NCBI GenBank assembly: GCA_044347985.1
Contig: JBIKTS010000001.1
Span: forward strand, 1 to 31,075
Direction of reading: 5' to 3'
DNA: 31,075 bases
Origin: Candidatus Babeliales bacterium
GTDB lineage: Bacteria > Babelota > Babeliae > Babelales > JAUPTZ01
The notes beneath the pieces were generated by a model. That model saw only the letters and a program-made list of their open reading frames with translations, searched no databases and was not told the origin of the DNA. The position numbers and the translations under genes are program-made. Shown in pieces: positions 27,498 to 31,075 of the stretch. How positions within the stretch are numbered: position 1 is the first letter of the stretch; each line of letters begins with the position of its first letter.

Positions 27498-27581
27498 TTT
27501 TAAGGTACCAGAGATAACATTAATTGCAAGAGCAAGGCAGCCCTATCAAAATTTATACGTAACTCTCAACTGACCGCCACT
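27498..27581. repeat. Direct repeat, copy 1 (84 bp)
   Basis: 77/84 identical to 29552..29635. On the - strand it encodes SGGQLRVTYKF-stop and carries TTGCAA-N16-TACCTT. Confidence 0.95.
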
Positions 27582-27594
27582 TAAGTCCCTCGAA

Positions 27595-29502
27595 CTATCG
27601 TGTTGATGCATGAGGGGTTATGTCAATAACCATAGTAGAAATATTATCACGGCTACGTCTTTCAAAAGCAGCCATAGTTATTGCTCGGGCAATTTGCTGA
27701 CAGGTCTGAGCTTCTCCTTTTTGTAAGCGAACTATATCAGCAACTTGCTCGCTCGATAAAACATCCCACACTCCATCACATGCAAGTACAACGTATTGCA
27801 TTTTTGTATCAGCAGACAGTGTAATAATGTCAGGAATATTGCTCACCGGATAATCCGTAACGCCTGTGCCATCTGCAAGAGTAATGCTGCGCGATTTTGT
27901 ATCATTTTTCGCACGAAAATCCCCGAATGAACGCGAGACAGATAAGCCTTCGATACGACGAGTAGTATCACCGCCGCCACCCGTAGCAATCAACCCTGAA
28001 GTAATTAAGGCAATTCTCGCTTGCTCATGTTCACATGATGGCTTATGATCAAGTGACTGCGCAATAACAATACAATTGTTATCTAATACAATTACACGCG
28101 AATCTCCTAGATTTACTAACTTAATACTACCATCAGCTAAAAAAAGTGCTACCACAGCTGTTGACCCGCTGGGTACGTTAGCATCTTTCAAACTAGCGTC
28201 AAACTCAATCCATAACTTTTGAATAACAGAATCATTCATTAAATCAGCGCCAAGAGCTACTTTATCAAAAACAAATAATGAAAATTTTTCTGCCAATATT
28301 TTTGCAACATAATCTCCACCATGACCATCAAAAACACCAAATATTCCTATATTAAGCTCAGAGTTATAATGCGCCACACATGCATCTTCCATCTCGGGTC
28401 TCTTGCCTTGAATCTCACTACACCCGACATAATTCACAAACTTACCAAGCATAGAGAGCTGGAGCGGAAAACTGATTTCTTGTTTCATACATTGTTCTTG
28501 CAAGTCGCGAATGTCTGATGGATCATCTAGAAATTTTTTAATGTCATTAACAGAGAGTTTATATGTATGCTCGCCTTTGTAGCTCGATGCTATTGATGTG
28601 ACGCGACAACTCGTTCCGGTTAGTCGGGTATTAAAACTAATTAAAACACTACCACTCTGGCTTGTAAGACAAGCATCTTGAATGTAACCCCCAGCGCTGA
28701 TGTTGAAACATATAAAATCTTCATCAGTGACATTCTCAAGACTCGCTAATAATGTAAAAAACTCGTTAACGCTTAAGGATTTTCCTCCTGGAGTTTTTAA
28801 GGTTTGACACCGCATCAAGAAAACAGCTAAACCCGGGCTCATTGGTGTTTCATCAGAAAAGCGAACGATTCTTTCAGGCTCTTTAATAGTTTGAGTATTG
28901 GAAAAAGGAGGAATAGTTAAAGATGACAACCCAAGGGATAAATCATCGCGTTCTTCAGGTTCTTTAATACTTGGATGGTCTAAAGATGGCAACACAGTCA
29001 ATGAGGGCTCAGGGCATAATTCTTCAGAAGAACGATTCCGAGTGCGACGTAACCGCGTTATCAAACATGCTCCCGCAATAATCGCTGCAGTCGCCGCAAC
29101 ACCCACCATACCAATACCAACTTTTGCCGATTCACTTAATCCAGGTTTAAAAAATGCATAAATCGCTTTTTTTACAAAAAAATCAACTTCGCTGCTTTCT
29201 TTCAGTGCTTTTAAAAACACTTGCAATGCTTTTTTATCTGCTGCCGTCAGTCTCTTGTTTTGTAATACGTTATCTGCATGCCTCACAAAAAACTTTTTTA
29301 AATCAGGATCTTGCTTCTCAAGCATCATAGAAATAAATTCATAGTCACGCATCTGCTTTTTTGATGACTTTTTATAAGTGCCATCACGCAGTCCGATGCT
29401 CAAAAATGCATCTTCTTTCGCATCAAGAATCACACTTATGGATCCAATAGCCATGACAAAAAATATGTAAAAACGGCATGATTTTTTTATAATCGTATTC
29501 AC
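27595..29502 (-). CDS. PP2C (PPM) Ser/Thr phosphatase fused to signal peptide and membrane anchor
   Basis: QGKRPEMED, VFDGHGG, GSTAV, NLGDSR, DHKP, LSVSRSFGD, LACDGVWDV, DNIS. GTG start. Confidence 0.92.
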   Translation of the reverse strand: MNTIIKKSCRFYIFFVMAIGSISVILDAKEDAFLSIGLRDGTYKKSSKKQMRDYEFISMMLEKQDPDLKKFFVRHADNVLQNKRLTAADKKALQVFLKALKESSEVDFFVKKAIYAFFKPGLSESAKVGIGMVGVAATAAIIAGACLITRLRRTRNRSSEELCPEPSLTVLPSLDHPSIKEPEERDDLSLGLSSLTIPPFSNTQTIKEPERIVRFSDETPMSPGLAVFLMRCQTLKTPGGKSLSVNEFFTLLASLENVTDEDFICFNISAGGYIQDACLTSQSGSVLISFNTRLTGTSCRVTSIASSYKGEHTYKLSVNDIKKFLDDPSDIRDLQEQCMKQEISFPLQLSMLGKFVNYVGCSEIQGKRPEMEDACVAHYNSELNIGIFGVFDGHGGDYVAKILAEKFSLFVFDKVALGADLMNDSVIQKLWIEFDASLKDANVPSGSTAVVALFLADGSIKLVNLGDSRVIVLDNNCIVIAQSLDHKPSCEHEQARIALITSGLIATGGGGDTTRRIEGLSVSRSFGDFRAKNDTKSRSITLADGTGVTDYPVSNIPDIITLSADTKMQYVVLACDGVWDVLSSEQVADIVRLQKGEAQTCQQIARAITMAAFERRSRDNISTMVIDITPHASTR

Positions 29503-29551
29503 AAAGTCTTTTCCAAGATAAAAGTATGAAGCTTGTAGTAAAACATCTTAT

Positions 29552-29635
29552 TTTTAAGGTACCAGAGATAACATTAATTACAAGAACAAAGCAGCTCTAT
29601 CAAAACTTATACGTAACTCTTAGCTGACCGCCACT
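29552..29635. repeat. Direct repeat, copy 2 (84 bp)
   Basis: Covers the last 11 codons and stop of the upstream ORF plus 48 nt of intergenic DNA with TTGTAA-N16-TACCTT. Confidence 0.95.
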
Positions 29636-31075
29636 GACCATCTGAGTTCCTAAACTATCGTAGTGCCATTCACCTTTTTCATCTATACGACGCGTATTAA
29701 TGTTTGGACACCCTTGAGTATCAGTATACAAACCACCAGGAATAAAAATACCACCGCGAAGATCAAACTGCAGACTCTTGTATGGCCGCCAGCTGAGCAC
29801 CATATTGAGTTCAATGCCCAGATGACTGGCAGCAAACTGATCGGTAGCCGATCCTGAAAAATGCAACTCGCTATCCTGTAGATACTTATAAATCGAATCC
29901 TCTTTGCCCGGACGTGAATTATTCGGGAATGTGCGATCTTGATACTTGTTCCATGCGTGCGGCGGAGTTACCTCCCAGAATGATAACACGTTGGCCTCAA
30001 GCAGTACCGTGCCACTGGCCAGCGGATACCATTGTGAACCAAATCCGATATATTCAAGGTTCTGCATTGTTTTGTAATTATTATGTGCATACAAATCGTT
30101 GTCAGACATTTCCATTGGACGCGGCAATTTACGCGGATACAGCATCACAAATGATGTTACATACCGGCCCACATAATTAGAGTCACGCAGCGGCATAAAG
30201 CTCTTTGTCTTTTTATCAACTTCCTGGGTAGTAAACGGATATTCGTCCCCTCCAATGTAGCCAACCGCTGCTGAAAAGTTCATACGCCTTGACGGCATAC
30301 TATAGCGCACATCACACAATGCCATTGCGCCTATATTAGTTACCGTATATCCCTCTCTAAATCGCCGCTGCGCGCCAAATGGTAAGTTTGCATTATACAA
30401 GCGTCCATTTGGTGTCGAGCCGGTGATACCAGTCAACGTATCAAAATATGTAACACCGGTTTTAAACTGATACTGACTATACAAAGAACCGTTGGTAAAT
30501 GACTCATCCGGAGTATGTTTTTGGCTTATATATTTTTCGCCCGCAATGTGCGTATCAGTACTGCTTGTTGGAGCCGCCTTACGAATTACGCCTCCTTGTT
30601 CTGCGGTGCTACGATACGCATTAATATGCTGCATTTCATCAGATACGTAATATGCGCGATACGGCAAAAATTCTTCCGCATCATTTTCAGGATTTACAAA
30701 CCCAAGAACCACATGACTTTGATATTTTACCGGCTGACCAATTTGTTTATCAAGACGCCCGGCAACCGCAGATGCTGATGGCTCTCCATCTTCATTAAAT
30801 GTTGTTGCGGTTTGGGTGTAATACGCATCTTCAACAACTACATGGTTGCGATCAATAGGATGCATATACTGCTTGCCATATTGAACCGCGCATTCAAAAT
30901 TGACGCTCCAATTGCCCGCCGTATACTCAGTCATACAACCAACAGTTCCCTGACGCAGGCCTGAATCGGCATCAAATTCAACTTTCAATTCTGGTGCATT
31001 TAAAAATACACCATACGGCTCAAGATACAATTTTTTACTCTCACCAAACGTATACACATTATAGCCAAGTCGCGC
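29600..31075 (-). CDS. C-terminal part of a probable outer-membrane beta-barrel protein (starts beyond the window)
   Basis: Frame is open to the window edge. Strands FSAAVGY and GIELNMVLSWRPYKSLQFDLRGGIFIPG; terminal LRVTYKF fits a BAM beta-signal with C-terminal Phe. Confidence 0.7.
   Translation of the reverse strand, partial: ARLGYNVYTFGESKKLYLEPYGVFLNAPELKVEFDADSGLRQGTVGCMTEYTAGNWSVNFECAVQYGKQYMHPIDRNHVVVEDAYYTQTATTFNEDGEPSASAVAGRLDKQIGQPVKYQSHVVLGFVNPENDAEEFLPYRAYYVSDEMQHINAYRSTAEQGGVIRKAAPTSSTDTHIAGEKYISQKHTPDESFTNGSLYSQYQFKTGVTYFDTLTGITGSTPNGRLYNANLPFGAQRRFREGYTVTNIGAMALCDVRYSMPSRRMNFSAAVGYIGGDEYPFTTQEVDKKTKSFMPLRDSNYVGRYVTSFVMLYPRKLPRPMEMSDNDLYAHNNYKTMQNLEYIGFGSQWYPLASGTVLLEANVLSFWEVTPPHAWNKYQDRTFPNNSRPGKEDSIYKYLQDSELHFSGSATDQFAASHLGIELNMVLSWRPYKSLQFDLRGGIFIPGGLYTDTQGCPNINTRRIDEKGEWHYDSLGTQMVSGGQLRVTYKF

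Follow-up and report, generated by a model that had tools for sequence, protein, structure and literature searches.

A PP2C gene set between two copies of a beta-barrel gene end is present in some strains and absent from others within one species-level cluster of Candidatus Dependentiae

How does a gene come to lie between two copies of the end of its neighbour? This question is raised by a stretch of 31,075 nucleotides (hereafter the window) from a lake-water Candidatus Dependentiae (TM6) bacterium, in which a gene encoding a membrane-anchored PP2C phosphatase is bounded by direct repeats that duplicate the 3′ end of an outer-membrane beta-barrel gene together with a putative promoter. The original prediction, made from the letters of the window, proposed that the PP2C unit had arrived by recombination with a diverged allele of the barrel gene end, and that the site captures genes and thereby enlarges the downstream gene array with no local integrase. 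We examined the locus against the whole source genome (G000), a metagenome-assembled genome (MAG) of 858 kb in 121 contigs that is 84% complete and has 43% GC, against four congeners (G001-G004) and against a set of related loci and contigs (L042-L051). The PP2C unit is a presence/absence polymorphism within one species, with occupied haplotypes of single origin, and we hold, with slightly better than even confidence, that it goes back to a homology-driven duplicative insertion behind the barrel gene by general recombination.

Recomputation of the repeats returned the values that had been read from the letters, namely an 84-nt core at 27498-27581 and 29552-29635 with 92% identity, a spacing of 2054 bp and seven mismatches, every one of which (7/7) is a transition. 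A repeat finder that includes the weaker flanks reports 97 nt at 87% identity, and the full extent is about 110 nt for the barrel-end copy and 104 nt for the displaced, or orphan, copy. Three of the mismatches fall in the coding tail and are all synonymous (CTA/TTG Leu and AAG/AAA Lys); the orphan reads on as the barrel C-terminus, as predicted, and the restored tail encodes the same peptide. Alignment also bore out that weaker homology continues beyond the core with a net gap of 6 nt, reaching ACGATAGT, which both copies have (27594-27601 and 29654-29661), and that the PP2C stop codon TAG (27595-27597) lies inside this weakly homologous stretch, in a frame shifted by one base from that of the barrel gene. 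The barrel-tail pair is the single family of repeats of at least 35 nt in the 31-kb window, and the genome-wide search for which the original prediction had called, run over all 858 kb, returned two copies, both at the PP2C locus; the repeat as a genome-wide element was thus rejected. Matching a 22-nt core of the repeat exactly against a collection of metagenome contigs, which evidently does not cover the relevant samples, gave no hit. A structured RNA or a terminator was rejected as well, because folding z-scores ranged from +0.3 to +2.2 over both strands with no stable structure, an Rfam search of the repeat gave no match and a terminator scan found none inside it. Within the repeat there is no dyad symmetry beyond GGTACC. 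A conserved mini-ORF (open reading frame) in the orphan tail was discarded, as the starts and stops of that frame differ between the source genome and the related contig L044.

The relatives include both empty and occupied sites. In L043, a 711-kb scaffold that is 96% identical to the window in the barrel gene and 96% identical in gltX, the barrel gene is followed by one repeat and then by the ortholog of the 195-aa gene that stands beyond the unit in the window, with no PP2C gene. The same order occurs in a 146-kb contig of another sample, and in the next species, G002 (gltX 78% identical), the barrel gene is directly followed by the 195-aa ortholog, which is 43% identical. Downstream of the orphan copy, the window is collinear with what follows the single repeat in these empty sites. 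Occupied sites are represented by L042 (about 92% identical), which runs from the barrel end through the repeat into the 5′ part of the PP2C gene, with an identical left junction (J1), and by L044 (gltX 96.8% identical), which carries the 3′ part of the PP2C gene (94.7% identical), the orphan and the array, with the same right junction (J2) and its junction-specific GAGGGACT. The empty site anticipated by the original prediction therefore exists, and the arrangement is not the same in all relatives, as empty and occupied haplotypes were both found. Because gltX is 96-97% identical in pairwise comparison among the window, L043 and L044, the unit is polymorphic within one species-level cluster, and because L042 and L044 carry the same junctions as the window, the insert arose once. 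The orphan of L044 has the junction without the 6-nt deletion of the window; this deletion is therefore a later change, private to this strain. In mid-gene (L042:1696-2142), this contig with the PP2C ortholog gives way abruptly to low-complexity, AT-rich sequence whose opposite strand has a poly-Pro frame; chimeric assembly is the probable cause. This break concerns L042 and not L044.

Comparison with the empty sites L043 and G002 places J1 between 29551 and 29552, directly after CCTTAAAA, with the same position in L042, and comparison with empty sites places J2 at or slightly upstream of ACGATAG. The duplicated target amounts to about 110 nt and comprises the final 60 nt of the barrel ORF, the stop codon and a 48-nt spacer with the promoter-like motif; the non-duplicated insert amounts to about 1.94 kb and extends from roughly the predicted transcription start, just past the −10 box, as far as the stop of the PP2C gene (Table 1). 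This stop codon is provided by barrel-derived sequence, and the barrel gene stays intact beside the insert. The PP2C gene is the only ORF in the unit; a transposase and a short target-site duplication are absent, the duplication being about 110 nt long, and terminal inverted repeats were not found at the ends of the 2054-bp unit. ACGATAG(T) is a shared string at the right joint and a candidate for a microhomology there. That the repeat or the whole arrangement might be an assembly artefact was a legitimate concern for a fragmented MAG of 121 contigs, the more so as L042 ends in unrelated AT-rich sequence. However, both junctions are bridged at 100% identity by Logan contigs from separate runs (27120-27658, 27555-27705 and 28544-31059), the gene order of the locus is identical in a 44.9-kb contig from another assembly, and the junctions recur in the diverged strains L042 and L044. 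With independent runs and a second assembly in agreement, we regard an artefact as extremely improbable.

If the unit was inserted, it is reasonable to ask whether a dedicated enzyme inserted it. A domain search of the interval from 23.9 to 31 kb found no recombinase ORF, and genome-wide there are two matches to PF00589 (tyrosine recombinase), both Xer-like, one of them in a frame of 317 aa and the other truncated where its contig stops. The claim that there is no local integrase, in or beside the unit, thus held, and a dedicated integrase was rejected, the Xer-like matches being the only ones in the 84%-complete genome. Islands and cis-mobilizable elements (CIMEs) integrate into the 3′ ends of tRNA, tmRNA and protein genes by means of tyrosine recombinases, and the unit could accordingly be an integrase-less cis-mobilizable cassette, such as a CIME or a decayed island, that was integrated site-specifically by a recombinase acting in trans, with the repeat as its attachment (att) site. 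The direct repeats over a gene 3′ end, the single-copy state of the empty sites, the lack of a recombinase in the unit itself, as in CIMEs, and the existence of two tyrosine recombinases in the genome would all suit such an event. However, these two recombinases resemble the housekeeping Xer pair, the genome has no further copy of the repeat, a survey of 9 related loci turned up no other cargo beside a duplicated barrel tail, and the right junction falls in a degraded, indel-bearing stretch with no clean core and with no dyad beyond GGTACC. We consider integration by a trans-acting recombinase unlikely.

The PP2C gene itself was examined for a possible source. Its PP2C domain is complete (Pfam PF00481, E 2.5e-41, profile positions 3-255 of 255), and the protein contains RPEMED, DGHGG, GDSR, DGVWD and DNIS, which we take to be the metal-binding motifs of the PP2C family. 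Both modules of the protein belong to multi-copy families in the genome, in which the closest paralogs are 36-43% identical, and on account of these low values a recent intragenomic source was rejected. Outside the lineage, the best database matches of the PP2C domain (27595-28530) are eukaryotic (plants, alveolates and dinoflagellates), at 30-40% identity. The question of a source also bears on the possibility that a replication or end-joining accident, such as template switching of the kind seen in microhomology-mediated break-induced replication (MMBIR), copied the PP2C gene into a staggered break with no homologous exchange. No source copy exists in the genome or in the congeners, a target duplication of about 110 nt is unusual for such events, and the position of the left junction at the promoter/leader boundary is more simply explained by a homologous anchor; set against these points are the abruptness of both junctions, the ACGATAG shared at the right junction and the lack of any recombinase signature, which such an accident would explain. 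On balance, we judge it improbable.

Homology-driven duplicative insertion is favoured because the unit lacks a transposase, terminal inverted repeats and an integrase, because ComEC and DprA are present in the source genome and RecA is present in all four congeners (4/4), and because recombination is evidently active in this genome, as its array genes are mosaic and many tandem paralogs share patches of 90-95% identity. In such an insertion, a promoterless segment of about 1.94 kb, made up of the PP2C ORF and its leader, would have entered the locus and would have left about 110 nt of target on each side. This might have occurred by homology-facilitated illegitimate recombination (HFIR), in which the 3′ end of the barrel gene or the spacer would serve for a homologous exchange and the PP2C stop would mark a single illegitimate joint, or by a Campbell-type event, in which a circular cassette with one repeat would integrate by a single crossover. 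The PP2C gene would then be read from one promoter copy and would end at the TAG in the displaced barrel tail, the first array gene would keep the other promoter copy, and the two repeats could subsequently permit precise loss of the unit and its transfer from strain to strain via homologous recombination. The enzymology and the direction of the individual events are what we infer from this arrangement.

Several points weigh against this explanation. RecA was not found in a search of the 84%-complete source genome itself. No copy of the PP2C domain that is more than 43% identical occurs elsewhere in G000 or in G001-G004, and the illegitimate joint and its microhomology therefore stay presumptive. 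The original prediction had suggested looking for molecules that lack the unit; among Logan contigs from four lake-water runs no joint skipping the unit, no variant and no circle junction was seen, at a depth so low that this is no evidence against heterogeneity. Leaders of equal length and weak similarity, together with N-terminal modules (N-modules) that are possibly homologous, would not be expected from a simple foreign insertion. Finally, the alleles of the repeat are reticulate, which requires at least one extra conversion or crossover under any model.

The repeat alleles were compared in an alignment of six copies, of which two are barrel-end copies, two are orphans, one is from an empty site and one is of unknown context. 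Five of the seven mismatches within the source genome are singletons private to one of its copies (barrel-end copy, three; orphan, two), which indicates that the two copies differed at no more than two sites when the lineage branched off. These singletons match the private divergence of the barrel gene in this lineage, which is about 3.5% in comparison with L042 and L043, whose own barrel tails are 99.1% identical over the same 316 nt. The Leu codons CTA, TTG and TTA are all present among functional barrel alleles, and the synonymous pattern is best read as standing polymorphism of functional barrel alleles, one of which is frozen in the orphan; selection on the ‘coding’ tail of the orphan was rejected, since its Leu states are such standing variants. 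Two allele classes can be distinguished, the first made up of both barrel-end copies and the G000 orphan and the second of the empty-site allele and the L044 orphan; the two members of the second class differ at 1 of 84 positions, and all other pairs at 5-10 of 84. As the alleles are reticulate, some conversion or inter-strain crossover has taken place since the insertion, and the order of events is not readable from a tree of the six copies.

These data divide the original account of how the cassette arrived. It remains valid that the unit is a genuine insertion by which the 3′ end of the barrel gene and the promoter became duplicated, whereas the mismatches no longer serve as evidence for an incoming allele, five of the seven being private to one copy. 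What would still fit the arrival of a diverged allele is conditional: the divergence of L042 from the empty-site L043 jumps exactly at the start of the repeat core, and the barrel-end copy of L042 is of the cassette-linked class but the orphan of L044 of the empty-site class, a contrast that would have this meaning, with HFIR as well as with a Campbell-type crossover, if these two non-overlapping contigs, whose phasing is presumed, belonged to one haplotype. A bolder idea is that the repeat is an integrase-free docking module, from which promoterless effector cassettes excise as circles and re-integrate in co-infecting Dependentiae strains by single crossover. Each cassette would then arrive already wired to a promoter copy, and the apparently reciprocal allele pattern of the second strain would be the footprint of a single crossover. 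We think this quite unlikely.

As had been predicted, TTG(C/T)AA-N16-TACCTT with an extended TG is present in both repeat copies. The motif matches the sigma-70 consensus at 7 of 12 positions only and is unlisted by a promoter scan. Its hexamers and their spacing are retained in the next species, G002, despite the diverged surrounding spacer, and this conservation lends moderate support to a promoter or other regulatory site, a function that we infer from sequence. The same promoter was not found ahead of the other array genes, whose upstream regions are unrelated to it. Downstream of the two promoter copies, the leaders of the PP2C gene and of the first array gene are 48-49 nt each and weakly similar (p about 0.002-0.01). 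The PP2C protein has no BLASTP similarity to the 195-aa protein, in agreement with the earlier remark that the genes behind the two repeats are far more diverged than the repeats, and the N-modules of the PP2C protein and the array are at best remote homologs (hhalign 84%). The similarity of the leaders and the relatedness of the N-modules fit none of the models neatly.

These resemblances would count towards another explanation, in which the barrel tail, promoter, leader and first array gene were duplicated in tandem in situ, the upstream copy became the PP2C gene by later divergence or by replacement of its domains, and gene conversion kept the repeats alike. The genome does contain many tandem paralogs with patches of 90-95% identity over the upstream region and N-module, and leaders of equal length and weak similarity, along with possible remote homology of the N-modules, also speak for such a duplication. 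It would nevertheless require that the two genes diverged beyond BLASTP recognition while the non-coding orphan tail stayed at 92% identity. The identity has sharp limits at either end, a conversion tract would have had no flanking homology, and the duplication is lacking in the outgroup G002 and in other species. An origin by tandem duplication in situ is therefore unlikely in our view, and we retain homology-driven duplicative insertion as the preferred reading of the locus.

Table 1. Positions in the window of the PP2C unit, its repeats and the neighbouring genes
Feature	Position	Strand	Description
Outer-membrane beta-barrel gene, 3′ part	29600..31075	-	491 codons of a 798-aa protein; cut by contig end
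Repeat copy 1 (barrel-end)	29552..29661	-	last 62 nt of barrel gene including stop (29600-29602) + 48-nt spacer
Putative promoter copy 1	29556..29583	-	TTGTAA, 16 nt, TG-n-TACCTT; 49 nt upstream of PP2C start
Left end of non-duplicated insert (49-nt PP2C leader)	29503..29551	-	from comparison with empty sites L043 and G002
PP2C gene, 635 aa	27595..29502	-	signal peptide, helical N-module, transmembrane segment ~121-147, linker, PPM/PP2C domain
Repeat copy 2 (orphan)	27498..27601	-	56 nt of displaced barrel tail (27546-27601; 6 nt deleted in G000) + 48-nt spacer
Putative promoter copy 2	27502..27529	-	TTGCAA, 16 nt, TG-n-TACCTT; 48 nt upstream of ATG 27449
First native array gene, 190-195 aa	26877..27449 (frame to 27464)	-	signal peptide, helical module, transmembrane segment, Pro-rich tail
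280-aa array gene	25919..26761	-	N-module common with 195-aa gene
643-aa ankyrin-repeat array gene	23953..25884	-	N-module common with 195-aa gene
gltX	22408..23853	+	convergent; conserved far border of variable interval

The gene that anchors the unit is cut by the contig end in the window, and its 5′ part lies on the adjoining contig (G000:C58, 1-913), the two abutting contigs accounting for 304 + 491 of the 798 codons. An AlphaFold2 (AF2) model of a full-length 798-aa ortholog consists of long antiparallel strands (predicted template-modelling score, pTM, 0.67), its best PDB fold matches in Foldseek are AlgE-type 18-strand barrels (E 1e-15, TMt 0.66), and an aromatic-x-Phe motif ends all 16 of the 16 barrel homologs listed. 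Judged by its modelled fold and its C-terminal beta-signal, the upstream gene is an outer-membrane barrel gene. Immediately upstream comes a 778-aa barrel paralog with 49% identity, and the tandem arrangement of the two genes is kept across the genus. The names of the barrel homologs at NCBI point to Candidatus Dependentiae, and the sequencing runs are lake-water metagenomes.

On the other side of the unit, the array genes lie on the minus strand, as do the barrel and PP2C genes, and are followed by the convergent gltX and a DUF4143 ATPase gene. The real start of the 195-aa gene is probably the ATG at 27449. The interval between the barrel gene and gltX holds 0 to 4 genes, with a content that differs among the loci compared, behind a conserved barrel gene. 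It is empty in G003, contains one reverse-strand gene in G001, G004 and L049, a 943-aa gene in L048 and two small genes in L051, and holds 1, 2, 3 or 4 array genes in L045, L043, G002 and the window, respectively. The interval is clearly a gene-content hot spot, and the other cargo that the original prediction told us to look for is thus seen in relatives.

The further proposal, of a capture site that grows the array, was not borne out. The upstream regions of the array genes are unrelated, and a second barrel-tail duplication was not found in any of 9 related loci (including G001-G004, L043, L048, L049 and L051). The ankyrin gene, within the segment 23936-25937 of the window, is also present in L044, is present in two copies in G002 and is replaced by about 30 nt in L043 (L043:11627-11658). 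Its presence or absence is a second within-species indel in the array, and comparison with L043 found no direct repeats around it. As only the PP2C unit has the barrel-tail duplication, and as the ankyrin indel has no repeats, general repeat-mediated capture is not supported.

The array genes at 26877-27449 and 25919-26761 are mosaic relative to L043 and L044, with identity per 100 nt ranging from 55% to 99%; blocks of 98-99% adjoin blocks of 55-75% and indels, next to a gltX gene that is 96-97% identical. Tandem paralogs occur in the source genome on contigs C1 (610-968 / 2336-2685), C10 (3033-3629 / 4540-5136), C13, C35, C74 and C83, with patches of 90-95% identity over the upstream region and the first 100-450 nt, and with a different remainder of the gene. 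Such patches look like promoter-plus-N-module units reused with new C-terminal domains, or like gene conversion limited to the 5′ part. Contig C72 (1164-1312 / 2864-3012) contains an ankyrin-like gene whose terminal 149 nt are repeated 1.7 kb downstream at 92% identity, ending exactly at the stop codon, with a reverse-strand gene for a 452-aa signal-peptide protein between the copies; the repeat may represent either the remains of a paralog or another case of a displaced 3′ end. Contig C108 (2.9 kb) is strongly GC-rich compared with the 43% GC of the genome and is a probable binning contaminant.

Dependentiae are uncultured protist parasites, and, to our knowledge, turnover of their secreted and membrane-anchored eukaryote-like repertoires is known only from gene counts. 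The locus described here resolves the gain or loss of a PP2C gene between strains of one species to the base pair, at a hot spot behind a conserved outer-membrane gene. If the putative promoter is functional, its duplication would mean that neither the PP2C gene nor the old first gene of the array lost its expression signals. In addition, the unit is usable as a strain-typing marker in lake metagenomes, and it provides a small test case of recombination-driven, integrase-free gene turnover in reduced genomes.

How, then, does the PP2C unit compare with known systems? The arrays of type VI secretion systems (T6SS), of Rhs and of contact-dependent inhibition (CDI) systems have been proposed to undergo HFIR-type displacement, in which downstream pieces become orphaned (PMC5361080, which cites the Rhs/CDI orphan-array work of Jackson 2009, PMC2935791, and Poole 2011, PMC3150448). 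The PP2C locus resembles such arrays in its conserved upstream anchor, in the new module directly behind it, in the lack of an integrase, in its strain-variable content, and in that the former 3′ end and the downstream gene were displaced but kept. Unlike in those arrays, the C-terminus of the barrel was not exchanged, since the peptide encoded by the restored tail is identical, only one orphan is left, the promoter was duplicated, and the cargo is a PP2C gene instead of a toxin-immunity pair. HFIR is also known from naturally transformable bacteria (de Vries & Wackernagel 2002, PMC122324; Prudhomme et al. 2002, PMC122325), and the locus would share with it one homologous side and one non-homologous joint with few shared bases, in a genome that has ComEC and DprA. 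The more usual outcome of HFIR is deletion or replacement, whereas at this locus recipient sequence was duplicated and the process is read back from sequence.

Two further kinds of element invite comparison. With islands in gene 3′ ends and with CIMEs, the unit shares direct repeats over the target 3′ end, a restored gene and single-copy empty sites; it differs from them in having no integrase in or beside it, in its size of 2 kb with one gene, in a site that was used once and in its degraded right junction. With integron cassettes, it shares the form of a promoterless unit of one gene that stands first in a variable array, downstream of a fixed promoter; it differs from them in the absence of IntI, of attI/attC and of a folded recombination site, and in that the promoter was duplicated instead of shared. 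Taken together, the event is a known kind of recombination product and a mechanistically ordinary gain/loss polymorphism, of which the PP2C locus provides a new example in a little-studied lineage.

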